A DNA stretch of 64,000 nucleotides from an uncultured Bacilli bacterium (GCA_934725685.1 CAKVBX010000004.1:7353-71352); one strand, 5' to 3'; positions 3,481-63,339 are shown, numbered from the stretch's first letter. A program made the numbers and translations. The notes: generated by a model from the sequence alone, not told the origin.

Positions 3481-4676
3481 TGTGACCTCCATGGTTTCTT
3501 ATCTAACAACTGAGAAGCGAAAATCTCGCTTTTCTTGATGAATTCGTTCAGATTTTCTTCGGTGAGTGCTTTTCTTTCCGGCATATGATGGAAAAGATAG
3601 AAGAGTGCACAGGCGATTTCGTCATAGGAGACTTCCCCATTCAGGAAGGCTTCGATTACTTTGGAATCCAAGGCATTATAATAGAACATTCCGGTATTTC
3701 CGTACTTCCGATAACATTCCTTGGTGAGAGCGAAGAGCGGATAGTGATCTGGATTGATGGGAGTGAGTCCGCTCACTTCCTTCTTCAACTTTTCCTCTTC
3801 CTCTTCATTGCAGTGATGGATGGTGCGTTTCCCTTTGGAGAGAGCAAAGGCGATGGCATTCTTCATCGAGCAGGGGGAATACTCATAATAGGTGGAAAGT
3901 TCCCCATTCTCATTTCTTGCCGTGACACCGGCATGGATGAGAGAGGAACGGCAGATCTTCGCTTCGATCTGTTCCATCGGATAGGAGAACATCTCACTGG
4001 CCTCGATGACTTCATAGCCTTTATTGACCAAGGTGGCACAGTCCACCGTAATCTTCGGAGACATCTTCCAGGTCGGATGAGCTAAGACCTCCTCCGGTTT
4101 TACCTTAGAGAGATCTTCCAATCTTTTGTCTCTCAGAGCACCGCCGCTGGCGGTGATCATCAAAGAGACAGGGGTTTCGTCTTTCCTACAGGCAGCCAGA
4201 CATTTAAAGAGTCCGACATGTTCGCTATCGATTGGATAGAGATGCCCGGTATAGGAAGCGAGTCTTCTCTTCATCAGAGAGGAACCGACGACATAGGATT
4301 CCTTGTTGGCCAAGAGAAGATCCTGATTGTTCTTTAAGGCAGAAAGAGTCGGAAGTATTCCGGCATTGCCGGAGATTGCATTGATCACCGTCGCATCCGG
4401 ATGACGGAGAAGGAGCTTTTCGATGGCACCTTCACCGTAATGGACCTTTCCCTTCCAAAACGGATGATGGAGGAGGAAGGCTTTCGCAGCTTCCTCCTCC
4501 ATCACAATATCCGTAAGCTTGTCGAACCAGAAAAGATAGGGTTCCAGCCTTTCAAAGCGGGAATGGAACGCAACTCCGACAAGGTCATATTCATCCTGAA
4601 AGCGAAGAATATCGAGTGCCTGGGTTCCGATATCCCCCGTGGCACCCAAGAGAATCAAAGGTTTTCCCATTGACAA
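3477..4676 (-). CDS. dxr: 1-deoxy-D-xylulose-5-phosphate reductoisomerase
   Basis: LGATGDIGTQALDI NADPH motif, LLLANKES, and YPIDSEH...ASGGA motifs. The start is either TTG (4676) or the ATG two codons later. Confidence 0.9.
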   Translation of the reverse strand: MSMGKPLILLGATGDIGTQALDILRFQDEYDLVGVAFHSRFERLEPYLFWFDKLTDIVMEEEAAKAFLLHHPFWKGKVHYGEGAIEKLLLRHPDATVINAISGNAGILPTLSALKNNQDLLLANKESYVVGSSLMKRRLASYTGHLYPIDSEHVGLFKCLAACRKDETPVSLMITASGGALRDKRLEDLSKVKPEEVLAHPTWKMSPKITVDCATLVNKGYEVIEASEMFSYPMEQIEAKICRSSLIHAGVTARNENGELSTYYEYSPCSMKNAIAFALSKGKRTIHHCNEEEEEKLKKEVSGLTPINPDHYPLFALTKECYRKYGNTGMFYYNALDSKVIEAFLNGEVSYDEIACALFYLFHHMPERKALTEENLNEFIKKSEIFASQLLDKKPWRSQ

Positions 4677-4685
4677 AATGATACC

Positions 4686-5744
4686 TCAGAGAACCATGTT
4701 GAATCCATAGGACATCATGGAGAGAAGTAACATGGAAAGAAAGGCGTTGGTGAGCAGAGAATCGAAACGGTCGATGACACCGCCATGGCCCGGGAATATT
4801 TTTCCATAATCCTTGATGGCATAATGGCGCTTGATGAGGGAGAAGAGGAAACCGCCGAGGTTGCCGTTGAAAGGAAGGAGCAGTCCAAGGATCAGAAGAA
4901 AGACCCAGGAAGCTCCGCCTAAGACGTTCATCGAAGAGAGCATGGAGGAAGTCCGGAACTGGAGGAGTCCGGGAACCAAGGGGATGTTGAAGACAAGTTC
5001 ATAAAGTGCAGCGAGACCGAAGAAGCAGAGATAGGAGAAGACACAGCCACCGATGAATCCTTCCCATGTCTTATGGGGAGAGATTCTCGGATTCATCGGA
5101 TGCTTTCCGAAGAGAACACCGACGAAATAGGCTCCGACATCACTCGACCAGGTTCCAATGGCGAGTGTAAGAAGGAAGGCGGAAGAGGACCAGCGCTGAT
5201 CGTGACCAGAGGTGACGAAGCTATCCCGGAAAGCACTTGTGGAAGTGAGGGTCCCTGACGCATTGGGAAGATAACGAACGAAATAGAGTCCCAAGATTCC
5301 ACAGGCGAAGAAAGTGATGATGGTAAAGAGATAAGTGACATCTTCCAACTTTGTCTTCTCAGAAAGAATGGCGATAAAGGAAAGGATAAAGAAGTAAAGT
5401 GCCATCAAAGAGAGAGGAACAAAAAGCGTCATCGGATTGAAGGAAAGAGACGTGGTATCCAAGGAAAATGGGTCCAATCCCTTGGCCCAGAGTGGGACAA
5501 AGAAGGAAAGGACAAAAAGCAGGGTATAGACATGTGTGATGATTCGGATCGGCCAGGAATATTTTCCTTTTCCGGGCACCATGAGCAGTTCATGGGTACC
5601 GATGAAAAGAAGAAATAATCCTAACACAAAATAGAACCATCCACCGAGGACCGAACAAGGGACAAGCACTGCGACTAAGACAATCGCCGTGATGATTCTC
5701 GTGATCATGCTCGATTTGCCTGATGACGAAAGTTTATTGGCCAT
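4686..5744 (-). CDS. cdsA: Phosphatidate cytidylyltransferase (long form, 352 aa)
   Basis: C-terminal CTP-transferase signature SPHKTWEGFIGG...KDYGKIFPGHGGVIDRFDS. It is polytopic, with an N-terminal region longer than usual. Confidence 0.85.
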   Translation of the reverse strand: MANKLSSSGKSSMITRIITAIVLVAVLVPCSVLGGWFYFVLGLFLLFIGTHELLMVPGKGKYSWPIRIITHVYTLLFVLSFFVPLWAKGLDPFSLDTTSLSFNPMTLFVPLSLMALYFFILSFIAILSEKTKLEDVTYLFTIITFFACGILGLYFVRYLPNASGTLTSTSAFRDSFVTSGHDQRWSSSAFLLTLAIGTWSSDVGAYFVGVLFGKHPMNPRISPHKTWEGFIGGCVFSYLCFFGLAALYELVFNIPLVPGLLQFRTSSMLSSMNVLGGASWVFLLILGLLLPFNGNLGGFLFSLIKRHYAIKDYGKIFPGHGGVIDRFDSLLTNAFLSMLLLSMMSYGFNMVL

Positions 5745-5803
5745 ATGGGGCTCCTTCCCTGTGAAAACTCACAGAGTCGACACGGAAAACAGAACGAAAT
5801 CAA

Positions 5804-6346
5804 TCAGATGGTTTCGATATCCTTGATTTTGAGAGCGAGCATTTTGTCGATTTCGACAATGTGCTTGTCGGTCTCTTTCTGAACCTTATCGGTGAGGTCG
5901 GACTTCATGTCCTCGCTGAGGGCAGTGTCCTTCTTGACGGCGTTGTTGGCATCGCGACGGATGTTGCGGATAGCGACTTTGCCGTCTTCGCAGTACTTCT
6001 TGGCCTGCTTGATGAGGTCCTGACGTCTGTCTTCACTCGGTGCCGGGAACTTGAGAATGACGGCATTGCCGTTCTGGGTGACCGTGCAGCCTAAATCGGC
6101 CTTGTTGAGTCCGGAAACGATGTCCTTGATGATGGAAGGATCAAATGTCTTGACGGAGAGGTCCGTGGCAGAGACGGAGCCAATCTGGGCGACCGACTTC
6201 AGAAGACACTTTTCACCGTAGGCGGTGATCATGACCTTATCCAAGAGCTGGGGAGTAACCTTGCCGGCTCTGAGGGTACCTAAGCTTTCCTTGAGGGAAA
6301 GGATGGATTTGTCCATCTTTTCGACAAACTCTTCTAATGTAGCCAT
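5804..6346 (-). CDS. frr: Ribosome recycling factor
   Basis: Typical RRF sequence (LRAGKVTPQLLDKV...PAPSEDRRQDLIKQAKKYCEDGKVAIRNIRRDAN), in the conserved position after pyrH. Confidence 0.95.
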   Translation of the reverse strand: MATLEEFVEKMDKSILSLKESLGTLRAGKVTPQLLDKVMITAYGEKCLLKSVAQIGSVSATDLSVKTFDPSIIKDIVSGLNKADLGCTVTQNGNAVILKFPAPSEDRRQDLIKQAKKYCEDGKVAIRNIRRDANNAVKKDTALSEDMKSDLTDKVQKETDKHIVEIDKMLALKIKDIETI

Positions 6347-21387: not shown

Positions 21388-22758
21388 ATGCCAGAGCTTC
21401 CTGAAGTCGAGACGGTGAGACGGGAACTGTCCCGTTTCCTCCTCGGAAAAGTCTTCGACAATCCTCAAGTCCTCTATCTCCCCGTCATCAAGACAGGGAA
21501 AGAAATGTTTCTCTCTTCCCTGAAGGGAAAGAGAATCCTTTCCTTGGGACGGAAAGGAAAATATCTGATTTTCCATCTGAGCGAAGAGAAGAAGCTTCTC
21601 TTCCATCTGAGGATGGAAGGAAAGCTCTTCGTCGAAAAGAAGGAAGGACTGAATCAAAAGCATATGACCATCTTCTTTCCTTTCCTGAATGACGGAGAAG
21701 GTCTCGCGTTTTACGATATCCGGAAATTCGGCTGTGTCTATTTCCTCAATGAAAACGAAGAAGGACCTCTTATCCATGTCGGAGAAGAACCCTTCACCAT
21801 GAAGAAAGAGAAGCTCTATTCTCTTTACCACAGTGAAAACAAACCGATCAAGACAGTCCTGATGGACCAGTCTCTCATGAGCGGCATCGGAAATATCTAT
21901 GCCGATGAAATCCTCTTCCGTAGCCGGATTTCGCCATTCCGGAATGCAGCTACCCTCACGGAAGCGGAAATCGGACTTCTGTTAGAAAATGCAGTTGCCA
22001 TCCTGAATGCGTCCATCGCCTCCCATGGTTCGACCGTGAAAACCTATCAGGCGAGCGAACACGTGAAAGGATCTTTCCAGGATCAGATTCAGGTCTATGG
22101 AAAAGAAGGAGCGCTCTGTCCCTGCTGCAGGAAATCTAAGATTGAAAAGAGAATCCTTTCCGGACGCGGCACTTCTTACTGTCCGCTCTGTCAGAAGACC
22201 GGCATCAATGTCGCTATCACCGGAAAGATTGCAAGCGGAAAAAGCTTAGCCTCCCACTATTTCGAGGAAGAAGGGTTTGCCCGCTTTTCCGCCGATGAAA
22301 AAGTCCACGAACTCTATCAGGATAAGAGATTCCTTCTTCTCCTAAAGGAACGGTTCCCGGAAGTTTTTCTGCGGGGAAAGCTCTCCAAGGAGAGAATCGC
22401 AAAACTCTTGCAGAACAAATCTTTCAATAGAAAATATACGTCATTCCTTTTCCGTGCTGTCAAAGATGCCGTCAACGACTTCATCATAAAAAACGACGGC
22501 AGGAACAAGATTATCGAGATTCCGCTCCTCTTCGACGCTCACATGGAAAAGGACTTCACTTACCTCGTCGGCATAGAGACCACAAAACAGAACGAGCACC
22601 TTCTCGAACGCGGAGAAGACATCACAAGGAAGGATTTCAACGCACTCAACTCATATGACCGACACCGGGAGGAGCTCGATTTCATCCTTCATTCCGATGG
22701 TACCAAAGAGGAACTGAAAATAAAGGTTCAAAACCTCATCAGAAGGATAACGGACTGA
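21388..22758 (+). CDS. Fused formamidopyrimidine-DNA glycosylase (MutM/Fpg) and dephospho-CoA kinase (CoaE), single 456-aa ORF
   Basis: N-terminal MPELPEVETVRRE, H2TH (GIGNIYADEILF) and zinc finger CPCC...CPLCQK. The frame then continues directly into the CoaE P-loop INVAITGKIASGKS, ...FSADEKVHELY..., and IEIPLLFD. There is no stop or start codon at the junction (about 22199-22216). Confidence 0.8.
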   Translation: MPELPEVETVRRELSRFLLGKVFDNPQVLYLPVIKTGKEMFLSSLKGKRILSLGRKGKYLIFHLSEEKKLLFHLRMEGKLFVEKKEGLNQKHMTIFFPFLNDGEGLAFYDIRKFGCVYFLNENEEGPLIHVGEEPFTMKKEKLYSLYHSENKPIKTVLMDQSLMSGIGNIYADEILFRSRISPFRNAATLTEAEIGLLLENAVAILNASIASHGSTVKTYQASEHVKGSFQDQIQVYGKEGALCPCCRKSKIEKRILSGRGTSYCPLCQKTGINVAITGKIASGKSLASHYFEEEGFARFSADEKVHELYQDKRFLLLLKERFPEVFLRGKLSKERIAKLLQNKSFNRKYTSFLFRAVKDAVNDFIIKNDGRNKIIEIPLLFDAHMEKDFTYLVGIETTKQNEHLLERGEDITRKDFNALNSYDRHREELDFILHSDGTKEELKIKVQNLIRRITD

Positions 22759-30940: not shown

Positions 30941-31585
30941 CTATTCGAGCCAAAACGGCGCTAAAGTGAAATGATGCTGACGCATTCTCAGCGTTTCCGG
31001 GAAGATCAGTTCATAGGCGTTGAGCATCATTCTGTCAGAATCATCCAACGCATACTTCTTATCTCCGATGAGAGTGAGTCCCAAAGAGTGAAGGGCGATA
31101 CGGATCTGATTCTGTCTCCCGGTCTTGATGCAGATATCCAGTGCCGTTCCCATCTTCACCGGATTTTTCGCCTTCACATAGGTGATGGCCTCGTCTCCTT
31201 TTCTTCTGTCTTTCGTAACAAAAACCTTGCCGCTCCGATGGTCGAAGCAAAGATACTGGACCACTCTCTTTTCAAAATCAAGCGGGACATTCTCTTTTAC
31301 GACGGCTTCATACTTACGAATAACAGTGCGATCTTCGAAGGCAGACTGAAGCATCCGTTTCACTTCCATGCTCTTTGCGAAAATCATCAGTCCAGAAGTG
31401 GATTTATCGAGCCGGTGCACGATGAAGATTTTCTGCTTCTTCCGATTGACGTATTCCCTCACATAATGGTAGAGGTTATGCATGTCGCCGTCATCGGTGG
31501 CAATGGAGAGCATTCCGCTCTTCTTATAGACGACAATCAGGTCTTTGTCTTCATAGACAATATCAAAGGGGTTGTTTCTTTTCAT
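30941..31585 (-). CDS. RluA-family pseudouridine synthase (no S4 domain)
   Basis: Catalytic motif HRLDKSTSGLMIFAK and GRQNQIRIAL. The start is ambiguous. I use MKRNNPFDIVYEDKDLIV (comp. 31583-31585), with an alternative ATG at 31603. The ORF-track start at 31759 adds about 58 non-homologous residues. Confidence 0.8.
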   Translation of the reverse strand: MKRNNPFDIVYEDKDLIVVYKKSGMLSIATDDGDMHNLYHYVREYVNRKKQKIFIVHRLDKSTSGLMIFAKSMEVKRMLQSAFEDRTVIRKYEAVVKENVPLDFEKRVVQYLCFDHRSGKVFVTKDRRKGDEAITYVKAKNPVKMGTALDICIKTGRQNQIRIALHSLGLTLIGDKKYALDDSDRMMLNAYELIFPETLRMRQHHFTLAPFWLE

Positions 31586-31934
31586 TTCAGTATTTCTCTG
31601 CATTAGGGTACAACATAGCGAGGAGAAAGGCAAACCATTCCGGCTTCTGTAGTCGCTTTTTATTGTCCTCAAGTCAGAAAGTAAAAGAAAGAAAATGAGA
31701 TAATCATTCTCTAGCAACTTATTTTGAATCGAATCAGTAGTTTGTATAGAAAAGAACAATATTTTTCAATTATCGCAAACATCAATCATCGATAAAAACA
31801 ATCAATGTTATTAGCAAACTATCGCAGAAAAGACGTCAATTCCTCCCGTTACCAGCAACCGATTTCTCAATTTTGTCTTTTCATAGTGCTCATTTCTCGG
31901 TATAATAAGCGTTTGAGAAATGGAGGTTCAACCT

Positions 31935-32585
31935 ATGGACTTAAAAGAATATCCGAATGTGACACTTCTCAATCATCCCCTCTTGAAGCATAAGATTTCG
32001 ATTCTGCGTGACGAGAAGACTCCGACCAGCGAATTCCGTACCATTGTCAAGGAAATCGCTATGATGGAAGGCTACGAAGCACTCAAAGATGTCGAGACGA
32101 AAGATGTTCTCATCAAGACTCCTATCGAAGAGACGATGCAGCCCATGGTGGAAGGAAAGAACCTCTGCTTTGTTCCGATTCTCCGTGCCGGTATGGGCAT
32201 GGTCGACGGATTTACGGAACTTGTTCCGACCGCCCGTGTCGGACACATCGGTCTCTACCGTGACGAAGTCACCCATGAACCCCACGAATACTATTGCAAG
32301 CTTCCCAATAACCTCGGAGACAAGAAGATTTATGTCCTCGATCCGATGCTTGCCACTGGCGGCAGCGCCATTGATGCCATCAAGCTTCTGAAGCAGCATG
32401 GTGCCAAGAACCTGCACTTCATCTGCATCATCGCCGCTCCGGAAGGTGTCGAAGCCTTCTGCAAGGCCAATCCGGATATCCCGCTCTTCATCGGATCCCT
32501 CGACAGACAGCTCAATGAGCATGCCTATATCTGCCCGGGTCTCGGTGATGCCGGCGACAGAATCTTCGGAACCGTCAAAGAATAA
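31935..32585 (+). CDS. upp: Uracil phosphoribosyltransferase
   Basis: HPLLKHKISILRDEKT, ILRAGMGM, and the PRPP motif IYVLDPMLATGGSA. The start is at MDLKE (ATG 31935), 8 nt after GGAGG. Confidence 0.95.
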   Translation: MDLKEYPNVTLLNHPLLKHKISILRDEKTPTSEFRTIVKEIAMMEGYEALKDVETKDVLIKTPIEETMQPMVEGKNLCFVPILRAGMGMVDGFTELVPTARVGHIGLYRDEVTHEPHEYYCKLPNNLGDKKIYVLDPMLATGGSAIDAIKLLKQHGAKNLHFICIIAAPEGVEAFCKANPDIPLFIGSLDRQLNEHAYICPGLGDAGDRIFGTVKE

Positions 32586-32587
32586 TC

Positions 32588-32643
32588 GAAAAAGACTGCT
32601 GGAAAGCAAGGTGACCCCCCTGCTCTTCCGGCAGTCTTTTTTT
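32588..32643. terminator. Long imperfect hairpin terminator after upp, marking the left edge of the low-GC island
   Basis: AAAAAGACTGC...GCAGTCTTTTTTT with an inner GGAAAGCA/TGCTCTTCC pairing. It is flanked by an A-run and a T-run. Confidence 0.7.
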
Positions 32644-32656
32644 CGATTTTACCGAA

Positions 32657-33556
32657 TCAATCCAAGGCATCCGGACCGAAGATGGATAGAATCGCTTCTT
32701 TCTCGGATGGGATATCAACCGTCTTTTTCGCTTCGAAATCGAATCGATACGACGTCTCAGTAAGAATATAATTTTCTTTGGCTTGATGTTTTTTGTTGTT
32801 CCAATCCTTCTTTCCATCAACAGCGGCATAGGAATCCTCGGTACAAGAGACAAGGAAAAAGTTCGAATCAAACAAGTATTTTGCATGATAAGAAGTCATG
32901 ATATTCTCAGAGTAATAATCGATGTCAACTAAATACCTATCCGCATCCATCCTGGACGAATATCGGCTCACCTTCGCTTCATTCTTTATGGAATAAGCTG
33001 ACTGGTAAGATGCGACATAATCCGGATAGCGGGACGGGGTCAGAACACCCTCAAGAATCGTATCGGCTTCTTTTCTGGAAATGTACCTTGGGCTGTTTAG
33101 CAACTTACTATCATCGCTGATTACTTTCGAATAATTGATAATGCCGTTTTCGAAATCATGAAGGATTTCGTTCGGTGCCTGTTGGTTCGCTCTCGACAGG
33201 GAGAAGAACGTCTTTTCGTTGTGATAGAAATAATGATGGTGGTTTTCATAGGACTCTTTTTTTGTCCCATTCTCCTCCGACAGCCAGTAAAGCATCGAAT
33301 ATTCCGTAGATTCATTGCAGTCAGCCCTGGCCCCTTCTGTCGATTTCGCTAAAACGGTCCTCTTCTGATTCTTTTCTACTTTTGTTTTCTTTTCCTCCCT
33401 CTGATACTCCCTCAGAGATTGAAAATCCAGGCTTTGCAGAAATGATGTGAAATGATCCAAAGTATCAAAAGAAGGATGGTTTAACGTAGAAGTATCCAGC
33501 TCCGTAGACTGACATCCCGTTACGAAAAGCAAAAAAATAGGTAACATCGACTTCAT
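32657..33556 (-). CDS. Orphan lipoprotein (about 299 aa)
   Basis: Signal peptide plus lipobox MKSMLPIFLLFVTGC|QST. No family is recognised. The start lies 13 nt after the stop of the upstream gene, and G+C is lower than the flanks. Confidence 0.65.
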   Translation of the reverse strand: MKSMLPIFLLFVTGCQSTELDTSTLNHPSFDTLDHFTSFLQSLDFQSLREYQREEKKTKVEKNQKRTVLAKSTEGARADCNESTEYSMLYWLSEENGTKKESYENHHHYFYHNEKTFFSLSRANQQAPNEILHDFENGIINYSKVISDDSKLLNSPRYISRKEADTILEGVLTPSRYPDYVASYQSAYSIKNEAKVSRYSSRMDADRYLVDIDYYSENIMTSYHAKYLFDSNFFLVSCTEDSYAAVDGKKDWNNKKHQAKENYILTETSYRFDFEAKKTVDIPSEKEAILSIFGPDALD

Positions 33557-33569
33557 TAAGTTCCTTTGT

Positions 33570-35423
33570 TTAAAAATACGCATTGAACATGTCTCCTTCC
33601 GTATATTCGCGATTTGTAATCAAACTTCGATAAGACTCATTATACTTTCCATTGCTTTTTTCCACTTCATTTTCTTCAATTAAGTCCAAGCCATCATCCA
33701 TTTCATACAAATAGGCTTTTTCACTTGATGAAGAATAGGAAGTCAGCAGCTTTTCAGCTTTACAATAATCAATCGAATGTCTAGAATGCAACCATGTTTC
33801 ATTTGACAAATCATTTATAATATATTCATTTGTTAAATATGAATTAACTTTTAGACGATAAACAACAACCCCATTGAAATTAGAGTTTTTCTCGTAATCA
33901 TTTCTTTGTAGCCACGCATTGGCCCCTTCTTCTTTGATAGGATAGCAATCGTCATAGAGAGAATAATCAAACTCAGCTTTTCTAGCAATTGTTGTGGTCG
34001 CAGTATGACTTTTAATCGTTTTAGAAGTGGGAGAAAACTCGATTATTTCATCTTCAGAATATAAAATTGGATGTAAGATATTGTTTTTCTTATAAAGATT
34101 ATAAGTGAAATCTACAGTTTGCTGTATCGCCGATTCAACGGAAGTGCCATTCAACACTTTATTCCAAATATAATTTGTAAATATCCTAGAGGAATCAACC
34201 CCAATAGTTGTATTCCAACCTAAAGAATAAGTACCACCATTTAGAATTGAAAAGACAGCAGGACTATAATCCGAACCACCATAGCAAGTGGCCCAAATTG
34301 AAAAATAACAACCCTCCATAGATGGAAGTTTATCACATGCAATAGAATCTGAAGGATTGATTGAAACGCCACCATCATCACCACCATGTGAGGAAATCAT
34401 GAAATATTCATGTTGAGTCATCAACTTACCATCAGTCATCGGAAGATAAAAATCATAATATGTTGGATTATTTATATGATTAAAAACATAGCCTTTTCTC
34501 TTAAAAAGATTATACGGTTCTATCATGTCTGGTCTTGTATCGATATCCCCAGCGTTCATAAATGAAGTGAAATACACTTGTTTTTTGGGAAATAAGGATA
34601 ATATGACCTTGCCCACATTATTTTTCGAACGAGCATTTACATAATAATCAGTGTTAGGACACAATGACACTTCTATTAGGTCAAGCGAATCATAGCCACG
34701 ATTCTCATTAGTTGCAATAATATCACCCGATGAATTCGCGATTTCAAGAACAAGATCAGTGATATCTTCTTTTTTCTCGATTTTAATAATGTAATCTGAA
34801 GTTTGAGAAACAATCAACCTTCGCATAAAGTCTGTACCTGATAGATTTAACGTTGTCATGGAATTCTGGACTAAATCATTAGTCTTTATAAATTTCCATT
34901 CAAAGATGGATTCATTCATTAAATTAATATCAGATTGAATCAATTCATTATTAACTTGAAAATCATAATTCGCAGCCGTTAAATACTTCGAATAGGAAGA
35001 GGCACTAGTTGTCAGTTTAAAACTTGTATCATCCGTATCTTGACTAATCGAAAACCAATAATAATTGGGACTGCTCATGTCATTCTCATCAATTAGTTCC
35101 ACTTTAGCACCCGAAACAAAAGGATTATTTGATAGACCGATTGAAAGATTTTGTGCTTTCAGCGGAGAGATTCGATATCTTTTAAAATTAGATTGTCCCA
35201 ATTCTTTTCTAATTACGAATCTTTGAGAATCATCATTAGTATAAGCTTTAAGAGATAAGCCTCCACTAGAACTCAAAACCAAATTTTGGTTATAAGCTGA
35301 ATGAATAGTATAAACACCACAATCACTAAACGAATTAGAAAATCCAATCGACTTTGTAGAATTCACAACAGCGGAGCCATTAATTGAAAGCAAAAGAGAA
35401 GCTGCCAAAAAAACACTTACCAT
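33570..35423 (-). CDS. Secreted multidomain protein: ricin-type beta-trefoil lectin, PPC-like beta-sandwich, putative clan-CD (gingipain/caspase-like) cysteine peptidase and an unknown C-terminal domain
   Basis: Start at MVSVFLAASLLLSINGSAV (signal peptide; SD GGAAGGA). Three-fold repeat ends in SQRFVIR / NYYWFSI / IFEWKFI. The PPC-like segment reads DYIIKIEKKEDITDLVLEIANSSGDIIATN...NTDYYVNARSKNNVGKVILSL. The His-Gly...Cys dyad context reads YFMISSHGGDDGG-(about 30 aa)-CYFSIWATCYGGSDY. The gene is markedly AT-rich. Confidence 0.6.
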   Translation of the reverse strand: MVSVFLAASLLLSINGSAVVNSTKSIGFSNSFSDCGVYTIHSAYNQNLVLSSSGGLSLKAYTNDDSQRFVIRKELGQSNFKRYRISPLKAQNLSIGLSNNPFVSGAKVELIDENDMSSPNYYWFSISQDTDDTSFKLTTSASSYSKYLTAANYDFQVNNELIQSDINLMNESIFEWKFIKTNDLVQNSMTTLNLSGTDFMRRLIVSQTSDYIIKIEKKEDITDLVLEIANSSGDIIATNENRGYDSLDLIEVSLCPNTDYYVNARSKNNVGKVILSLFPKKQVYFTSFMNAGDIDTRPDMIEPYNLFKRKGYVFNHINNPTYYDFYLPMTDGKLMTQHEYFMISSHGGDDGGVSINPSDSIACDKLPSMEGCYFSIWATCYGGSDYSPAVFSILNGGTYSLGWNTTIGVDSSRIFTNYIWNKVLNGTSVESAIQQTVDFTYNLYKKNNILHPILYSEDEIIEFSPTSKTIKSHTATTTIARKAEFDYSLYDDCYPIKEEGANAWLQRNDYEKNSNFNGVVVYRLKVNSYLTNEYIINDLSNETWLHSRHSIDYCKAEKLLTSYSSSSEKAYLYEMDDGLDLIEENEVEKSNGKYNESYRSLITNREYTEGDMFNAYF

Positions 35424-35475
35424 AAGATTGTTTCCTTCCTTTAAATTAAGCTCGTTGAAGTGATATTGCAAAACC

Positions 35476-35505
35476 ATTTTAGCATTTATTTAAATGTAAA
35501 GTAAA
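35476..35505 (-). promoter_or_regulatory. Putative promoter of the island operon
   Basis: On the minus strand, TTTACT (comp. 35500-35505), an 18-nt spacer, then TAAAAT (comp. 35476-35481). This places the TSS downstream of the ORF-track ATG (35477) and so supports the 35423 start. Confidence 0.4.
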
Positions 35506-35605: not shown

Positions 35606-37009
35606 ATGAAAGACACGACACAAGAACTCGAGCAAGGGAAACTCTTCCCGCTCATCCTGAAACTGACCTTCCCTGCTGTCATCGCACAGCTGATCACTTT
35701 TCTGTACAATGTCGTGGACAGGATCTATGTTTCCAATATACAGGGAATCAAGACCGAGGCATTGGCTGCCCTCGGCATCGTCCTTCCCATCACCATCCTC
35801 GTCCAGGCGTTCAGCAATCTCATCGGACTCGGAGGGAGTCCTAGGGCAACGATTGCCCTAGGAGAAGGAAAGAAGGAAGAATCCAACCGGATCTTCAATA
35901 CCTCTTTCCTGCTTCTTGTTCTGTTCGGAATTGTCCTGTCCTTCCTTCTCTTTTTCTATGGGAAAGACCTCATCATTCTATTCGGCTGTCCAGATGCCTC
36001 GCTTTCCTATGCGAGCGATTATCTGAGAATCTATTCCCTCGGCACCCTCTTCATCCTGCTTTCTCAAGGTCTCAATCCCTTCATCACAGCACAAGGTAGG
36101 TCCTTCAGTGCGATGTTCTCCATTCTGATCGGTGCCCTCATCAATATCGCTCTCGACCCTTTATTCATCTTTGTCTTCCGGATGGGAGTGAAAGGGGCAA
36201 GCCTTGCGACCATCCTCTCTCAGGCCATCTCCTTTATCTGGATTTTCACTTTTTTCTTCCGGAAATCGAGCATCTTCCGTATCAGACTGAAAGACATGGC
36301 ATTCTCCCTAAGACGATGTCTCAGCATCTTTTCCCTCGGTCTTTCTCCGTTCATTATGACGGCGACAGAATGCGCCATCCAGATTGTCTTCAATATCTGC
36401 CTGAAGAAAGTCACCGGCAGCGATGAAGCCTATACCGCCGCACTCACCATCATGCTCTCCGCCCTTCAGCTCATCTCACTTCCCCTCAACGGCATGGGTT
36501 ATGGAATGCAGCCGTTTGTCAGCTACAATTACGGAAAAGGAAATATCAAGCGGCTGAAAAAAGGGATTTTTCTCATTACCGGAATTGCCTTTGTCTTTGC
36601 TGTTATGATTTATACCATTTCCATGATCTATCCTGGGATGTATGCCACGATATTCTCTGCAGACCCCAAGGTGAGACAAATTGTCATCGCCTATTGTCCG
36701 CTGTTTCTCATGGGAACCATCATGTTCTTCATCCAGATGACATTGCAGAATATCAATGTCGCTTTAGGACAGGCGCTCAGCGCCCTTTGTCTCGCCTGTA
36801 TGAGAAAGGTCGTCATCCTCATTCCGCTCTGTTTCCTTCTCTCCCATTATCTCGGAGCAGAAGGCGTCTTTCTTTCCGAAGGAATCGCCGATTCTCTCGC
36901 CGGTATCATCACCGGAATTGTTCTCTTCCTTTCCTTCCGTTCTCTTTTTAAGCAGAGGGAAAAACCTTCCGTAGCTCTGACAAAAGGGCTCTCCGGAAAA
37001 GGGATGTGA
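35606..37009 (+). CDS. MATE-family efflux transporter
   Basis: GKLFPLILKLTFPAVIAQLITFLYNVVDRIYVS start, 12 predicted TM helices and two-fold internal symmetry. Confidence 0.85.
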   Translation: MKDTTQELEQGKLFPLILKLTFPAVIAQLITFLYNVVDRIYVSNIQGIKTEALAALGIVLPITILVQAFSNLIGLGGSPRATIALGEGKKEESNRIFNTSFLLLVLFGIVLSFLLFFYGKDLIILFGCPDASLSYASDYLRIYSLGTLFILLSQGLNPFITAQGRSFSAMFSILIGALINIALDPLFIFVFRMGVKGASLATILSQAISFIWIFTFFFRKSSIFRIRLKDMAFSLRRCLSIFSLGLSPFIMTATECAIQIVFNICLKKVTGSDEAYTAALTIMLSALQLISLPLNGMGYGMQPFVSYNYGKGNIKRLKKGIFLITGIAFVFAVMIYTISMIYPGMYATIFSADPKVRQIVIAYCPLFLMGTIMFFIQMTLQNINVALGQALSALCLACMRKVVILIPLCFLLSHYLGAEGVFLSEGIADSLAGIITGIVLFLSFRSLFKQREKPSVALTKGLSGKGM

Positions 37010-51883: not shown

Positions 51884-53428
51884 ATGGAAAACAAAGAAAA
51901 CAAACTCAGCCAAGAGAAGAAGCCATCCGGGCTTCCGCTTCCTGACCAGCCTGAAGGCGAGCAGGAAAAAATCGCCTTGGACGAAGAACTCCATTCCTCT
52001 TTGATCATCGGAGACAAAGACCGGCTGACCATCGCCTTGAAGGAGAATGCTCCGGTTCAGCTTTCAGATGCTCTAAATGCCTTGCGTTCGGATGAAGTCG
52101 TCCTTTTCTATTCCCTCACCGGGAACGATTACGACAAACTCGGTGAGATTTTCTCGTACCTTTATATTGAAAAGAAAATCGCCCTGATAGAACACCTGCC
52201 CAAGAAGAACCTTGCCATCGTCCTTCAGAATGTCTCCAACGATGACCTTTCCGACTTCCTCGAGGACGTGAAGAAACAGGTCCGCGAGAAAGTTTTATCC
52301 TATCTTCCGAACAAACGGAAGCAGCAGATCAAGGAACTCTCCCGCTATTCCGACGACACCGTCGGAAGTATCATGACCACCGAATTCCTCACAATTCAGA
52401 GCGGATGCAGAGTCCAGGATGTCTTTGAGAAAATCAAGGAAATCGGAAACACCCTCGAAACCGTCCGCACCATTTTCATCCTCGACAAATCCAACAAACT
52501 CATCGGCACCGAGCGGCTCGAAGACATGATGTTCGAGGAGAAAGACGAATTCATCGACAATGTCATGCAGAAGGACTTCCCCTACATCTCTCCGATTGCC
52601 GATAAGGAACAGGCTGTTCCAATCTGCGAAGAGTACGACCTCCCGGTTCTTCCCGTCGTCAGCAAGACCGGCGAAATGCTCGGCATCCTCACCTTCGACG
52701 ATGTCATGGATGTTCTCGAAGAAGAGAACACCGAAGACGTCCTCAAGCAAGGTGCCGTCTCTCCGACCCAGCGTCCGTACATGGAGAACAAAATTTTCAA
52801 CATCGCCCGTTCTTATGTCATCTGGCTGATTGCCCTTCTAGTCATCAACACCTTCTCCGGCATCATCGTCTCCCGTTTCGAATCCGCACTCCTCACTTTG
52901 CCCGTCCTCATCTCCTTTGTCCCTGCCCTGAATGACTCCACCGGCAACTCCGGAAGCCAGACCACTTCCATGGTCATCCGTGCCCTCACGACAGAAAATG
53001 TCAAGAGAAAGGATTACTGGAAGATCATCGGCAAAGAGTGTCTCGTCGGTTTGATCACCGGCCTTGTCGTCGCCCTCTTCAACTTCGGATGGGTCATGAT
53101 CGAACTCAACACTCCTCTGCTCAATGTCACCGACGAAATGAAGAAGACTTTGTTGGAGGATTTGCATTTCGGGAATCTCAACAATGGGATCCAATACGGA
53201 TACATGGTTATTGCAGCCATCGTCTCCGCCGCTTTATTCTTCGGCATATTCCTTTCCAAAATGTTCGCTTCCATTCTCCCTCTCATTGCAAAGGTTGTCC
53301 ATATCGACCCCGCTTTGATGTCCGGTCCGCTCGTTGCTTCTTTGATGGATATCATGACCCTGCTTCTCTACTTCGGCATCGCCATGGCTGTCATCGATAG
53401 CATCAATCCGGGCTTACTAGCCATGTAG
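51884..53428 (+). CDS. mgtE: Magnesium transporter MgtE (paralog 1)
   Basis: MgtE N-domain, CBS pair (VGSIMTTEFLTI..., LPVLPVVSKTGEMLGILTFDDVMDVLEEENTED), TM domain with GNSGSQ, and the late Asp (LVASLMDIMTLLLYF). Confidence 0.85.
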   Translation: MENKENKLSQEKKPSGLPLPDQPEGEQEKIALDEELHSSLIIGDKDRLTIALKENAPVQLSDALNALRSDEVVLFYSLTGNDYDKLGEIFSYLYIEKKIALIEHLPKKNLAIVLQNVSNDDLSDFLEDVKKQVREKVLSYLPNKRKQQIKELSRYSDDTVGSIMTTEFLTIQSGCRVQDVFEKIKEIGNTLETVRTIFILDKSNKLIGTERLEDMMFEEKDEFIDNVMQKDFPYISPIADKEQAVPICEEYDLPVLPVVSKTGEMLGILTFDDVMDVLEEENTEDVLKQGAVSPTQRPYMENKIFNIARSYVIWLIALLVINTFSGIIVSRFESALLTLPVLISFVPALNDSTGNSGSQTTSMVIRALTTENVKRKDYWKIIGKECLVGLITGLVVALFNFGWVMIELNTPLLNVTDEMKKTLLEDLHFGNLNNGIQYGYMVIAAIVSAALFFGIFLSKMFASILPLIAKVVHIDPALMSGPLVASLMDIMTLLLYFGIAMAVIDSINPGLLAM

Positions 53429-53439
53429 GAGGTTTTCCC

Positions 53440-54942
53440 ATGAACGAAACAAACGAAAAAGAAAATCTCAGCGAAGAAGAAATCCAGGTCGACCAGAGCC
53501 TCGCTCCGAAAGTCCACCATGAGCTTTCCCCTTCCGCCCTCAAAGTCATCATCGATACGCACAACACCGCCTTACTCAACACCATGGCGTGTACTTACGA
53601 TCCGACCAATATCGCCCACGCCCTCGAAGGCCTTTCCCAGGAAGATCTGCTCTTCTTCTTCAAATCCGTCAAGAGTGACGAATCCGCAGAGATTTTTACC
53701 TATCTCGAGCAGGATACCAAGGAGAGCGTCGTCCAGGCCTTCTCCTCGCTCGAACTGCACAGCATCGTCGACAGCATGGCGACAGATGACCTCGTCGACT
53801 TTGTCGATGACCTTCCCGCCAACCTGATTCACAAGGTCCTGATGGCCGCCTCCCCGGAGGACAAGGCACAAATCAACGCCTATCTTCACTTCAAGGACGA
53901 TTCCGCCGGTACCCTGATGACCCCGGAATATCTCTCGGTCCGCGACACAGACAACGTAGAAGATGCCATCGGCAAGATTCGGAAATACGGAAAGGAAATG
54001 GAGACCATCTGGGAGATTTTCGTCGTTGACAGCACAAGAAAGCTCGTCGGCACGGTCACCCTGGATAAGCTCGTCGAATCCGACTTAGACAAGACCATGG
54101 CGGAAGTTATGACCAACCAGGTCGTCTCCGTTCAGGTCAACACCGACCAGGAAATCGTTCTGCAGTACTTCCGGAAATACGACATCTCCGTCATCCCGGT
54201 CACCAACGCTTCCGACCGCATGCTCGGCATCATCACCTTCGACGACGCCATGGACGTCGCCAACGACGAAAACACGGAAGATACTTTACTTTCCTCCGCC
54301 GTTCTCCCTTCCGACACCCCATATCTGAAGACTTCCATTCTGAGGCTTGTCCGAAGCTATGGTGTCTGGCTGATTCTTCTTCTCGTCCTCAACACCTTCA
54401 CCAGTATGGCACTATCCTATCTGAGCGCACTCGGGCCGCTCCTTGCCATCCCTGTCCTCACCGCCTTCCTTCCGACCATCATGGGAACCAACGGAAACTC
54501 CTCTGATCAGACAGCGACCGTCACCGTCCGTGAGCTCGCCTTAGGAAACATCACGACAAAGAACTATTTCAAGGCGATGTGGAAGGAGTTCCGTGCCGCC
54601 AGTATCACAGGATTCATTCTTGCCGTCTTCTCCTTCGGCTGGATGCTCGTCGAGCTCTATTCCGGAATGATCGCCCTCACCGCCAGAGACAACGACATCA
54701 TCGTAAGACTCTGTAACGGAGACAGGAACATCTTCTTCCTCCTTTTGGCCATGTCCGTCTCCCTCACCTTCCTCATCACGACGATTTTGGCGAAACTCTT
54801 AGGTATCTCCCTCCCGGTCTTAGCCAAGAAGATCCATCTCGATCCCGCCGTCATGTCACAGCCGGTCATCTCCACGGTCTTAGACATCATCTCCATCGTG
54901 GTCTACTTCCTCTTCACTTCTCTGATTTTCCGCGGTCTATAA
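53440..54942 (+). CDS. mgtE: Magnesium transporter MgtE (paralog 2)
   Basis: Same architecture as paralog 1: AGTLMTPEYLSV, ISVIPVTNASDRMLGIITFDDAMDVANDENTED, GNSSDQ, and VISTVLDIISIVVYF. It starts 11 nt after paralog 1, behind AGGAGG. Confidence 0.85.
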   Translation: MNETNEKENLSEEEIQVDQSLAPKVHHELSPSALKVIIDTHNTALLNTMACTYDPTNIAHALEGLSQEDLLFFFKSVKSDESAEIFTYLEQDTKESVVQAFSSLELHSIVDSMATDDLVDFVDDLPANLIHKVLMAASPEDKAQINAYLHFKDDSAGTLMTPEYLSVRDTDNVEDAIGKIRKYGKEMETIWEIFVVDSTRKLVGTVTLDKLVESDLDKTMAEVMTNQVVSVQVNTDQEIVLQYFRKYDISVIPVTNASDRMLGIITFDDAMDVANDENTEDTLLSSAVLPSDTPYLKTSILRLVRSYGVWLILLLVLNTFTSMALSYLSALGPLLAIPVLTAFLPTIMGTNGNSSDQTATVTVRELALGNITTKNYFKAMWKEFRAASITGFILAVFSFGWMLVELYSGMIALTARDNDIIVRLCNGDRNIFFLLLAMSVSLTFLITTILAKLLGISLPVLAKKIHLDPAVMSQPVISTVLDIISIVVYFLFTSLIFRGL

Positions 54943-61293: not shown

Positions 61294-61569
61294 CGTTTCA
61301 CCTCCGAATATCCCCATAATCTTACCACAGAAGGCTTAAGAAAGCCTGAAAAAAACACCCTGAAAAATCGAGGAGGAAAACAAGCGAAAAAACGCACGGA
61401 AAATTCAAAAAAAATTTGAGGGGGTCAAATACGTAAAACCTTTTATTTTAGTAAAAAGTTTTTGCATATGTTGCTCTATTGGAATTGACAATATTGGTTT
61501 ATGGTATTTAGTTTCATGACTTTTCAATCTAGCAACATGGTAGTCTCAAAAAAATCCCCCCGGGTTTTT

Positions 61570-61624
61570 CAAGCGAAAAAAAAGTGTTGTTTTTTGCTTC
61601 GATTTCCTTTATATTTTTCGCTTG
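61570..61624 (+). promoter_or_regulatory. Inverted repeats in the potA leader capable of alternative hairpins next to the RBS
   Basis: CAAGCGAAAAA (61570-61580) is the perfect reverse complement of TTTTTCGCTTG (61614-61624). The same left arm can instead pair with TTTTTTGCTT (about 61590-61599). Confidence 0.35.
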
Positions 61625-61644
61625 TAAAAAGGGGGTATTCCGAA

Positions 61645-63339
61645 ATGAAACCTGTCGATTTCTCTTCTGAGAAGAAAAATAACGATGAGTACATCATCCA
61701 GCTGAAAAATGTGACAAAGATTTTTGATGGCACAACCGTCATCGACAAGATGAATCTGAACATCAGAAAAGGTGAATTCGTAACGCTTCTCGGTCCGTCC
61801 GGCTGCGGTAAGTCCACGACGTTAAGAATGATTGCCGGTTTCGAAACTCCGGACAGCGGCGACATTCTCCTCTCCGGAAGAGACATCACACCGGTTCCGC
61901 CGAACAAGAGACCAATCAACACGGTTTTTCAGCATTACGCTTTGTTTCCGAACCTCGATGTCTATGACAATGTCGCCTTCGGCTTGAGAAACAAGAAGAT
62001 CCCTGTCGCCTTAAAGGACAAAGACGGCAACCCTGTCATGAAGGTCAACAAGGCCCAGGTCAAATATCTCCGTTCTCAGATCAAGCGTATCCAGAAAGAT
62101 AAGATTATAGATGCCACGGAAAAAGCCACTCGTCTCGAGGACTTGAGCACCAGATTGGATGAGGCGTTGAACACCCCCGTCCAAGCCTATAAATATAAGC
62201 ATCTCTCGGAAGAGGAAATCGATGAGAAGGTCGTCCGCGCCCTTTCCATCGTCGACCTCGACGAACTTGAAGACCGTGATATCTCCACGCTTTCCGGCGG
62301 TCAGCAGCAGAGAGTCGCCATTGCCCGTTCCATCATCTGCGAACCAGACATCCTTCTTCTCGATGAGCCACTCGGCGCCCTCGACCTGAAGATGAGAAAA
62401 GACATGCAGATTGAGCTCAAGGAAATGCACAAGAGACTCGGCATCACCTTCATCTACGTCACGCACGACCAGGAAGAGGCCCTCACCATGTCCGATACCA
62501 TCATCGTCATGAACAACGGCGTCATCCAGCAGATTGGTTCTCCGGAAGGTATCTACAACGAGCCGATAAATGCCTATGTCGCCGACTTCATCGGTTCCAG
62601 CAACATCTATAACGGTACGGTCATCGCGCCGAAGAAGGTCAGAATCCTCAATTCCAATTTCGAATGCGTCGATGACTTCCCCGTCAACGAGCGTGTCGAT
62701 GTCGTCATCCGTCCGGAAGACATCAAGCTCTCTTCCGAACCGAAAGACGGCTATATCCAGGGCAGAATCTCGGCCAAAGTCTTCAAGGGTATCCATTATC
62801 AGTATGTCATCATGGTCGGTCACGATGAAGTTCTCGCACAGTCCATCGACAACTACGACAGCAACAAGCCGATTTATCTAAGCATCCTTCCGGATGGTCT
62901 CCATCTCATGCACAAACAGGATGATATCAACATCTATACCGACTCCTATATCGGAAAGGACCACATGGTCTATATCGACGAACAGCCTTTCGAAGCCGAT
63001 CTCAGCAAACTCATTCCCAACTCCAAGGTCGATGAGGACGGCATCGTCACCTTCGACAAAAAACAGTACGATTTCGCCGATGCCGATGTCGTCTGCACCA
63101 TCAAGCCGACGGACATCCAGATCAGCGACGACACTTCCGAAGCACAGATCACCGGTCAGGTCATCAATTCCGTCTACAAAGGCGACCACTATGTCATCCT
63201 TGTCCGTAGCGAAGACGATGAGGACTTCTTAGTCTCCACCCCGGACACCTTCAACGAAGGCGACATCGTCGGTCTCCGTGTCCAGAAAGAGAACATCTCT
63301 CTCCGCCTGAAAGGAGACATGGCAGATTATGCGTTATAA
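61645..63339 (+). CDS. potA: Spermidine/putrescine ABC transporter ATPase PotA, enlarged form (565 aa)
   Basis: Walker A GPSGCGKST, Q-loop VFQHYALFP, LSGGQQQRVAIAR, LLLDEPLGALD, and VTHDQEEA. There are about 60 extra residues between GLRNKK and LSGGQ, and two consecutive TOBE-like C-terminal repeats. The start is at MKPVDFS (ATG 61645), behind AAAAAGGGGG. Confidence 0.85.
   Translation: MKPVDFSSEKKNNDEYIIQLKNVTKIFDGTTVIDKMNLNIRKGEFVTLLGPSGCGKSTTLRMIAGFETPDSGDILLSGRDITPVPPNKRPINTVFQHYALFPNLDVYDNVAFGLRNKKIPVALKDKDGNPVMKVNKAQVKYLRSQIKRIQKDKIIDATEKATRLEDLSTRLDEALNTPVQAYKYKHLSEEEIDEKVVRALSIVDLDELEDRDISTLSGGQQQRVAIARSIICEPDILLLDEPLGALDLKMRKDMQIELKEMHKRLGITFIYVTHDQEEALTMSDTIIVMNNGVIQQIGSPEGIYNEPINAYVADFIGSSNIYNGTVIAPKKVRILNSNFECVDDFPVNERVDVVIRPEDIKLSSEPKDGYIQGRISAKVFKGIHYQYVIMVGHDEVLAQSIDNYDSNKPIYLSILPDGLHLMHKQDDINIYTDSYIGKDHMVYIDEQPFEADLSKLIPNSKVDEDGIVTFDKKQYDFADADVVCTIKPTDIQISDDTSEAQITGQVINSVYKGDHYVILVRSEDDEDFLVSTPDTFNEGDIVGLRVQKENISLRLKGDMADYAL

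Follow-up and report, generated by a model that had tools for sequence, protein, structure and literature searches.

Gene organization between upp and the MATE transporter gene

We analyzed a 64,000-nucleotide (nt) stretch of DNA from an uncultured Bacilli bacterium (GCA_934725685.1, CAKVBX010000004.1:7353-71352), referred to below as the window, and focused on a pair of minus-strand open reading frames (ORFs) located between upp and a MATE transporter gene. The larger ORF spans 33570..35477 (635 codons) and is called here the large gene or protease gene; the ORF downstream of it spans 32657..33583 (308 codons) and encodes a predicted lipoprotein, called here the partner. The positions and the setting agreed with those given in an earlier note on this DNA, and all the motifs quoted there were located (SQRFVIR, NYYWFSI, IFEWKFI, YFMISSHGG, FSIWATCYGG, and LFVTGC). 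The features of the locus are collected in Table 1, in which residues of the large protein are numbered from the start of the 635-codon ORF.

Table 1. Positions of the features at the locus, counted from the first letter of the window
Feature	Position	Strand	Description
upp	31920..32585	+	Pfam UPRTase, 5e-75
Hairpin followed by T-run	32620..32634	+	Between the convergent upp and partner genes; no T's on the minus-strand side
Partner gene	32657..33583	-	Predicted 308-aa lipoprotein; lipobox VTG-C24, Cys codon 33512-33514
Large gene	33570..35423	-	617 aa from Met19 (likely start) of the 635-codon ORF, plus stop; predicted exported lectin / beta-sandwich / clan CD peptidase
C-terminal alpha/beta domain, ~160 aa	33573..34049	-	Residues 477-635; no detectable relatives outside the family
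Predicted minimal caspase-hemoglobinase-fold (clan CD) peptidase domain	34050..34586	-	Residues 298-476
Predicted PPC / collagen-binding-domain-like beta-sandwich	34587..34871	-	Residues ~203-297
Predicted ricin-type beta-trefoil	34878..35330	-	Residues ~50-200; Foldseek, Pfam, family profile
N-terminal hydrophobic export segment and linker	35331..35423	-	ORF residues 19-49
Promoter-like site	35476..35505	-	TTTACT, 18 nt, extended -10 TGcTAAAAT; consensus scan
Segment absent from relative L019	33599..35436		1838 bp, protease gene and its ribosome-binding site; blastn
MATE transporter gene	35606..37009	+	Pfam MatE, 3.4e-38

To place the start sites, we considered the promoter-like signals and the conservation of the N-termini. 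The scan for promoters, which is a pattern match alone and gave 14 sites in the region vs 10.6 expected, showed the TTTACT/TGcTAAAAT site as the only one 5' of the large ORF. The first ATG of the ORF (35477) falls within the -10 element of this site, and the start is therefore likely Met19 at 35423, which is preceded by AAGGAAGGA. The 617-aa product from Met19 is identical to database entry P0001. The putative promoter proposed in the earlier note thus stands as a pattern match, but the site swallows the ATG used there, and the start was moved to Met19. For the partner gene, the most likely start is the ATG at 33583 (MRIFKQRNLMKSMLPIFLLFVTGC), which overlaps the stop of the large gene by 14 nt, because its N-terminus MRIFKQ is conserved in homologs as MRISKQ and MLIFKH and the 14-nt stop/start overlap was found again in three other loci (L001, L021, and L029). 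This start is likelier than the one 13 nt past the stop that had been proposed before.

The base composition of the pair differed from its surroundings. The G+C content of the large gene was 0.329, with 0.27 at third codon positions (GC3), and that of the partner gene was 0.416 (GC3 0.48); GC3 was 0.61 in upp and 0.60 in the MATE gene, and the G+C content of the whole window was 0.480. The remaining 1.9-kb windows had a mean G+C content of 0.487 (sd 0.021, minimum 0.434), which puts the large gene at z = -7.6, and the partner gene was within the lowest 1.5% of 900-nt windows. These measurements confirmed the impression that the large gene has about one-third G+C vs about one-half (48.7%) elsewhere, with the lipoprotein gene intermediate. 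A protease gene with G+C below that of its host was also found in L024 (0.33 vs 0.52), L030 (0.36 vs 0.46), and L001 (0.34 vs 0.41).

Family of the large protein

Searched alone, neither protein gave a match in Pfam, NCBIfam, or a single-sequence search of the PDB. A word-indexed homolog search found only a few relatives, six for the large protein and three for the partner, and an exhaustive profile search for the large protein returned 1989 matches at E ≤ 1e-3, of which 71 reached E ≤ 1e-30. The matches of the profile search are clusters at 50% identity, and the family alignment holds 78 members/clusters. Most of the strong matches were about 630 aa long and aligned end to end; the weaker ones were mostly giant proteins in which the beta-sandwich module is repeated 5-17 times. 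In most family members, Pfam matches covered the lectin part only. A search based on alignment A1 found four metagenome loci related to the protease.

The clusters of six members were looked up, and none was named by any source. No relative of the protease was found on viral contigs, and tblastn against plasmids and phages gave no match. PADLOC and PHROGs returned nothing meaningful, and the viral library searched with Foldseek returned only lectin or beta-sandwich noise. We also searched the literature for an exported lectin combined with a clan CD or CHAT protease and found no description of such a family. The orphan status that the earlier note had assigned to the lipoprotein was upheld, and it applies to both proteins. 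The parts are of known kinds (an R-type lectin, a sandwich resembling the pre-peptidase C-terminal (PPC) domain, a clan CD fold, and a lipoprotein); the family and its combination with a dedicated partner were not found described. The best reading is that the enzyme represents a new clan CD family and architecture, with a predicted function.

Domain architecture of the large protein

The large protein is predicted to consist of an export segment, a lectin, a beta-sandwich, a clan CD peptidase domain, and a new C-terminal domain, and at the level of domains this prediction is well supported by profile matches and by structural modelling. We modelled the protein with AlphaFold2 (AF2) from a 7-sequence alignment, which gave a predicted local distance difference test score (pLDDT) of 76.9 and a predicted template modelling score of 0.75. 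Residues 1-45 had a pLDDT below 50 and were disordered, and the other domains were confident.

An N-terminal hydrophobic segment was present in 49 of the 55 full-length members; 40 of these 49 had a basic n-region, and several had lipoboxes. Export of the protein of the window subclade is likely, and the signal peptide seen by the earlier reader holds as a hydrophobic export segment, with a qualification on its n-region that is given below.

The next module was matched by Foldseek in the PDB to the trefoils of HA33, PSL, and MOA. Pfam RicinB_lectin_2 (PF14200) matched 52/78 family members and PF00652 matched 16/78, and the family profile, run against the PDB, matched ThreeFoil (3.8e-24) and the lectin of mosquitocidal toxin (MTX) (4.4e-24). 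Residues Q85, F87, F142, and W194 are invariant in alignment A1. These results bear out the three-fold QxW-like repeat as a ricin-type beta-trefoil, which is predicted to be a glycan-binding module.

For the following segment of about 100 aa, Foldseek matched the collagen-binding domain of ColG (1nqj, TM-score 0.81) and a PPC domain of Bacillus anthracis (5sv5, TM-score 0.70). The Pfam PPC model (PF04151) had no match listed for the window protein or its 78 relatives. The PPC-type assignment made from the sequence pattern is thus supported by the fold, with no match at the sequence level. The same sandwich module (A1 profile positions ~195-295) occurs 5-17 times in tandem in giant uncharacterised metagenomic proteins of 1,000-3,500 aa, including P0038, P0043, P0048, and P0052.

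Caspase-fold domain and its His/Cys dyad

The pLDDT over the enzyme domain was about 80-95. The secondary structure assigned by DSSP ran in the order β1 (300-305), α1, β2, α2, β3 (358-365), two short strands (371-374 and 377-379), β4 (392-397), α3, β5 (417-421, ending in Gly420-Trp421), α4, α5, and β6 (470-474). Clan CD peptidases have the order β1-α1-β2-α2-β3-...-β4-α3-β5-α4-α5-β6, with His on the loop after β3 followed by Gly, Cys on the loop after β4, and an aromatic residue after β5 (PMC4357240). The modelled order over residues 300-474 agrees with this, and W421 is the aromatic residue after β5. YFMISSH364-G365 closes the strand 358-365 and FSIWATC398 comes right after the strand 392-397, which places His364 (codon 34386-34388) and Cys398 (codon 34284-34286) 34 residues apart.

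The best structural match of the enzyme domain in Foldseek was the SAVED-CHAT protease 8tl0 (E 1.7e-5, ~205 columns, root-mean-square deviation 3.6-3.9). At the sequence level, Pfam CHAT (PF12770) matched 14/78 members at E ≤ 0.01, with a best value of 1.3e-7. The CHAT matches inspected span positions ~123-272 of the profile; among P0049, P0053, and P0054, in which the His and Cys positions were located, all matches include the Cys and that of P0054 also includes the His. Peptidase_C25 (gingipain, PF01364) matched two of the 78 relatives, with a best value of 1.5e-5. The window protein gave no match to the CHAT model at E ≤ 1 and none to the Peptidase_C25 model. When the profile of the protease domain was run against the PDB, 20 of the 21 matches were caspases or CHAT proteases, with caspase-1 first, and the 'issHG' of the family was aligned on 'FMSHG' of caspase-1. 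These results point to a clan CD fold with the His-then-Cys order, as the earlier note had proposed, and the sequence ties to named clan CD families are weak, mostly under curated thresholds.

The conservation of the two residues was then checked in the 78-cluster alignment, as that note had advised. H364 was kept in 70/78 clusters, G365 in 76/78, and C398 in 70/78, and both His and Cys were invariant in the 32-sequence protease set A6. His364 was missing from eight clusters. Seven of these were inspected and were well aligned, and they had lost His and Cys jointly (for example PG...Q, TG...N, AG...P, and EG...T); all seven keep G365, and most keep W395 and G420. Joint loss is the pattern expected of a functional dyad, and its occurrence in these alignments indicates that apparent pseudo-enzymes exist within the family. 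The apparent pseudo-proteases P0019, P0021, P0022, P0041, P0064, P0066, and P0107 are full-length. On this basis, the enzyme domain is predicted to have proteolytic activity. An acidic loop after β1 (D311-x-D313-T-x-x-D317) is also conserved, with D311 in 39/78 clusters, D313 in 48/78 plus 23 with N, and D317 in 40/78. This loop is a candidate S1 or Ca2+ site, and it alone suggests a putative preference for a basic P1 residue.

The domain at the C-terminus had a pLDDT of 84-94 over residues ~480-590. Its profile gave no match in the PDB, family members searched against Pfam gave only scattered single matches in this part, and hhalign showed no relation to the lipoprotein (probability 0.1%). 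The roughly 150 C-terminal residues in which no motif had been recognised thus correspond to an unnamed domain of ~160 aa.

Lipoprotein partner and its counterparts in other loci

The partner has a basic n-region, a hydrophobic core, and a lipobox, with the sequence pattern MRIFKQRNLMKSMLPIFLLFVTG-C24, and all sequences of the partner alignment A4 share the lipobox Cys (C15 in A4 numbering). It gave no match in Pfam, NCBIfam, or PADLOC. The canonical lipoprotein signal and the lack of a detectable family are in keeping with the earlier description of a lipobox lipoprotein that could not be placed.

We then read the genes next to the protease gene in other loci. Homologous lipoproteins of about 300 aa lie directly after the protease gene in L001 and L021, and L026 carries the same pair. 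In these three loci, the partners are 34-38% identical to that of the window and the proteases 44-54%. L027 has an adjacent 365-aa lipoprotein, and L008, L025, and L029 have adjacent lipoproteins or N-anchored proteins of about 155 aa with a GCxC motif, to which L030 possibly belongs. A small neighbor with multiple transmembrane segments follows the protease gene in L005 and precedes it in L007, L023, and L024. In all, a Pfam-less lipoprotein or membrane-protein gene adjoined the protease gene in 11/11 distinct loci read, and the partner types, at least three in number, were unrelated between subclades. The proteins of L008 (3415-3876), L025 (2339-2809), and L029 (4455-4928) form a second unnamed partner family, which shares an N-terminal anchor or lipobox, the pattern 'GCxC...E..V.I.Y.D', and a C-terminal 'LY..YI'.

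Our view is that the lipoprotein is the cognate partner of the enzyme. Its most likely job would be that of an inhibitor or immunity protein restraining the peptidase at the producer surface. This would fit better than anchoring or maturation because the partner is envelope-tethered, switches type, diverges faster, and outlasts loss of the enzyme. The genomic traits of toxin/immunity pairs are present: the genes are co-oriented and coupled, the partner varies between lineages, it occurs without the enzyme (L019), and the context is mobile.

Polymorphism and proposed mobility of the locus

The relative L019 (NCBI GCA_050873565.1) shares 93-97% identity with the window, with which it is collinear. 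The presence/absence comparison that the earlier note had recommended showed that L019 has the partner gene and lacks the protease gene alone, together with its ribosome-binding site. The ends of the 1838-bp indel sit in short AAGGA-type repeats made by the two Shine-Dalgarno sequences. Since L019 lacks this segment, its partner gene lies directly behind the protease promoter, and the promoter-like site is kept ahead of it. At the DNA level, the L019 partner gene is 91% identical, and a 2-bp deletion in it disrupts the final ~45 codons. In the comparison of the window with L019, dN/dS was 0.23 for the partner and 0.01-0.13 for the flanking genes. We had considered that the partner is decaying in L019 and dropped this idea, as its dN/dS is above that of the flanks yet not neutral.

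In other assemblies the pair occurs as a unit: it adjoins an RHS/YD gene in L001 and lies just after an IS66 element in L026. A deletion in L019 is likelier because the pair occurs as a unit in such unrelated contexts, and it appears more parsimonious than an insertion in the window. Among more distant homologs, some adjoin AbiE and ISL3, others SymE and serine recombinases, and others IS3. In ten related species (MATE proteins 61-65% identical), neither gene was found within 8 kb of the MATE gene; the upp-MATE synteny was not kept, so this comparison is uninformative. Taken together, the data support the low-G+C unit as putative horizontally acquired accessory DNA. The horizontal origin claimed earlier for a two-gene insertion is thus retained in view of the composition and the L019 polymorphism, but the polymorphic unit is the protease gene alone, not the pair.

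In L001, which represents the P0003 lineage, the pair is divergent to a gene for an 851-aa RHS/YD-shell (TEN_YD-shell) protein at 3271-5826 (-), alongside which a Pfam-less 303-aa gene lies at 2347-3258 (-), another toxin-like cassette. This region may be a small competition island.

Proposed function and alternative explanations

We propose that the pair is a mobile two-gene operon encoding an exported, glycan-guided caspase-fold peptidase and a cognate lipoprotein that likely serves in inhibition or immunity, and we give this explanation a probability of roughly 0.6. In the proposed mechanism, the product of the first gene would be an exported modular enzyme guided by glycans, whose caspase-fold domain would cut a target protein via the His364/Cys398 dyad. 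The C-terminal domain might act in regulation or partner binding, both of which are guesses. The second gene is translationally coupled to the first, and its lipoprotein, held on the outer face of the producer membrane, would keep the peptidase in check or inactivate it at the surface of the producer itself. More tentatively, the whole family might comprise lectin-guided caspase-fold antibacterial toxins acting independently of contact (large bacteriocins) in uncultured gut Firmicutes, with fast-evolving envelope-tethered immunity proteins and cassettes that travel with insertion sequences (IS); immunity genes such as that of L019 would then be orphans of this process. We regard this wider scenario as possible rather than probable.

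Several observations weigh against the proposed operon. The large protein of the window has no Pfam match even at E ≤ 1; the ten CHAT-matching relatives inspected score 15-22 bits, below the 24-bit gathering cutoff of Pfam; and the caspase-1 matches in the PDB reach only E ~0.06. The AF2 alignment of the large protein held only the 7 sequences mentioned above, and the fold was read from the order of the elements in DSSP; the AF2 model of the partner was unusable (pLDDT 35.6). The window subclade (the window protein, P0002, and P0003) has no lysine or arginine before the hydrophobic segment, which is unusual for a Sec signal. The role of the lipoprotein rests on gene context. Its 2-bp frameshift in L019 may be either genuine or a fault of the assembly, and its dN/dS indicates continuing constraint, a result that does not decide whether it depends on the protease. 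Finally, no integrase, IS element, or tRNA adjoins the pair in the window, and only the AAGGA repeats are found at the ends of the indel.

The same two genes could instead serve host interaction or nutrition, with the enzyme cleaving mucins, immunoglobulin A, or other gut glycoproteins and the lipoprotein serving to anchor, dock, or mature it. The Bacilli lineage of the source appears to live in the animal gut, the nearest structures of the trefoil include HA33 of botulinum progenitor toxin complexes as well as other lectins, and tight translational coupling would equally suit an assembly partner. A maturation or anchor factor, however, would be expected to be of a single type, yet unrelated partner types swap between subclades, and the partner both diverges faster than the protease and is retained in L019 without it. 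We consider a host-directed role less likely than one in inhibition or immunity, yet still a serious alternative. It is a good deal harder to accept that the protein is a non-catalytic surface lectin or adhesin in which the caspase-like domain serves as scaffold only. Non-catalytic versions do exist, since at least 7/78 clusters lost both His and Cys, and no peptidase model matches the window protein significantly; but this protein carries His364-Gly365 and Cys398 at the canonical places, and across the family these residues are widely kept and lost jointly. This explanation is unlikely.

The SAVED-CHAT structure as the best match of the enzyme domain, and the homologs near AbiE and SymE, might suggest that the protein works in the cytoplasm as a CHAT-type effector in anti-phage defence or abortive infection. 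Such a role appears very improbable: the protein lacks a sensor or NTPase domain and had no match in PADLOC, classical signal peptides are found in most members and lipoboxes in some, lectin and PPC modules are typical of extracellular proteins, and no relatives were found on viral contigs, phages, or plasmids. An assembly artefact, in which a foreign low-GC fragment was misjoined into a contig of a metagenome-assembled genome, would account for the sharp compositional break, and the source is indeed a metagenome assembly. We give it next to no weight, as the same arrangement is present on a 161-kb metagenome contig from the ENA that shares 99.995% identity with the window, NCBI, Logan, and the ENA likewise record the 635-aa ORF product on a 75-kb contig, the L019 junction lies exactly at the gene borders in short repeats with shared flanks, and the homologous pair occurs in several other assemblies.

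Other features of the window

The remaining window is ordinary housekeeping DNA, including infC-rpmI-rplT, feoAB, dnaE, polA, an rluA-like gene, and a glycosyltransferase. The hairpin between the convergent upp and partner genes reads as a putative upp terminator. In the intergenic region between the rluA-like gene and upp (31500-31999), the G+C content falls to 0.36, and Rfam at the gathering threshold gave no family there. Just after polA, a 456-aa ORF at 21388-22758 (+) joins Fapy_DNA_glyco and H2TH to CoaE, and looks like either a mutM-coaE fusion or two genes run together. Two full-length MgtE paralogs (MgtE_N + CBS + MgtE) lie in tandem at 51884-53428 and 53440-54942 (+), with 12 nt between them. 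The ORF at 61501-63339 (+) encodes an ABC ATPase of 612 aa with TOBE_2 at its C-terminus, separated from the ATPase part by a long stretch; the ABC_tran model has 137 positions but is matched over residues 82-291, so that a large insertion is implied.

Comparison with known systems and significance

The window domain resembles the CHAT proteases (PF12770), such as SAVED-CHAT of type III CRISPR (8tl0), in its caspase-hemoglobinase fold, in which strand 3 is followed by His-Gly and strand 4 by Cys. It differs from them in being much smaller (~180 aa), and the protein is predicted to be exported, is fused to lectin and sandwich modules, lacks a sensor domain, and lies in a non-defence context. 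The predicted enzyme would share with gingipains (MEROPS C25) and clostripain/PmC11 (C11) the type of an exported bacterial clan CD cysteine endopeptidase with accessory non-catalytic domains, and the acidic residues on the loop after strand 1 may suggest a similar preference for basic P1 residues. The His-to-Cys spacing of gingipain R is close to that of the window protein. Unlike gingipains and clostripain, the window protein has no significant sequence match, no type IX C-terminal domain, and no haemagglutinin/adhesin domains, and instead has a ricin trefoil, a PPC-like module, a novel C-terminal domain, and a dedicated lipoprotein gene.

The fungal chimerolectins MOA (Marasmius oreades) and PSL1a (Polyporus squamosus) also combine a ricin-type trefoil and a cysteine protease in one polypeptide. 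Their protease domain is papain-like (clan CA), dimerising, and activated by Ca/Mn. Besides being fungal, they have neither a PPC module nor a partner gene. A ricin-type trefoil serves as the cell-binding part, either fused to an enzymatic toxin part or associated with one, in MTX, in HA33 of botulinum complexes, and in the PF07598 VM proteins of Leptospira (PMC9900628). The enzymatic parts of these systems differ, being ADP-ribosyltransferases, DNases, or neurotoxins, and there is no lipoprotein partner. With regard to the gene pair, comparators are the NisI/SpaI immunity lipoproteins, the periplasmic Tsi lipoproteins of type VI effectors, and the staphopain-staphostatin operons. As in such toxin/immunity systems, an enzyme gene is followed by a small gene for a predicted cognate partner that is membrane-tethered, diverges faster, varies in type, and persists without the enzyme, in a mobile context. 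In contrast to them, the partner has no link in sequence or fold to a known immunity or inhibitor family, and no dedicated export or delivery apparatus lies nearby.

Clan CD includes caspases, gingipains, legumains, and new defence proteases. If the proposed reading is true, it would add to this clan an extracellular, glycan-addressed delivery of caspase-fold proteolysis. The family is by no means small, as 71 clusters (50% identity) were found at E < 1e-30, mostly of this architecture, and a single characterised member could annotate thousands of metagenomic proteins. L019 offers a natural protease-minus, partner-plus comparison. The constant presence of a variable envelope partner yields a testable hypothesis, inhibitor or immunity protein vs anchor or maturation factor, which bears on competition or host interaction in gut Bacilli.

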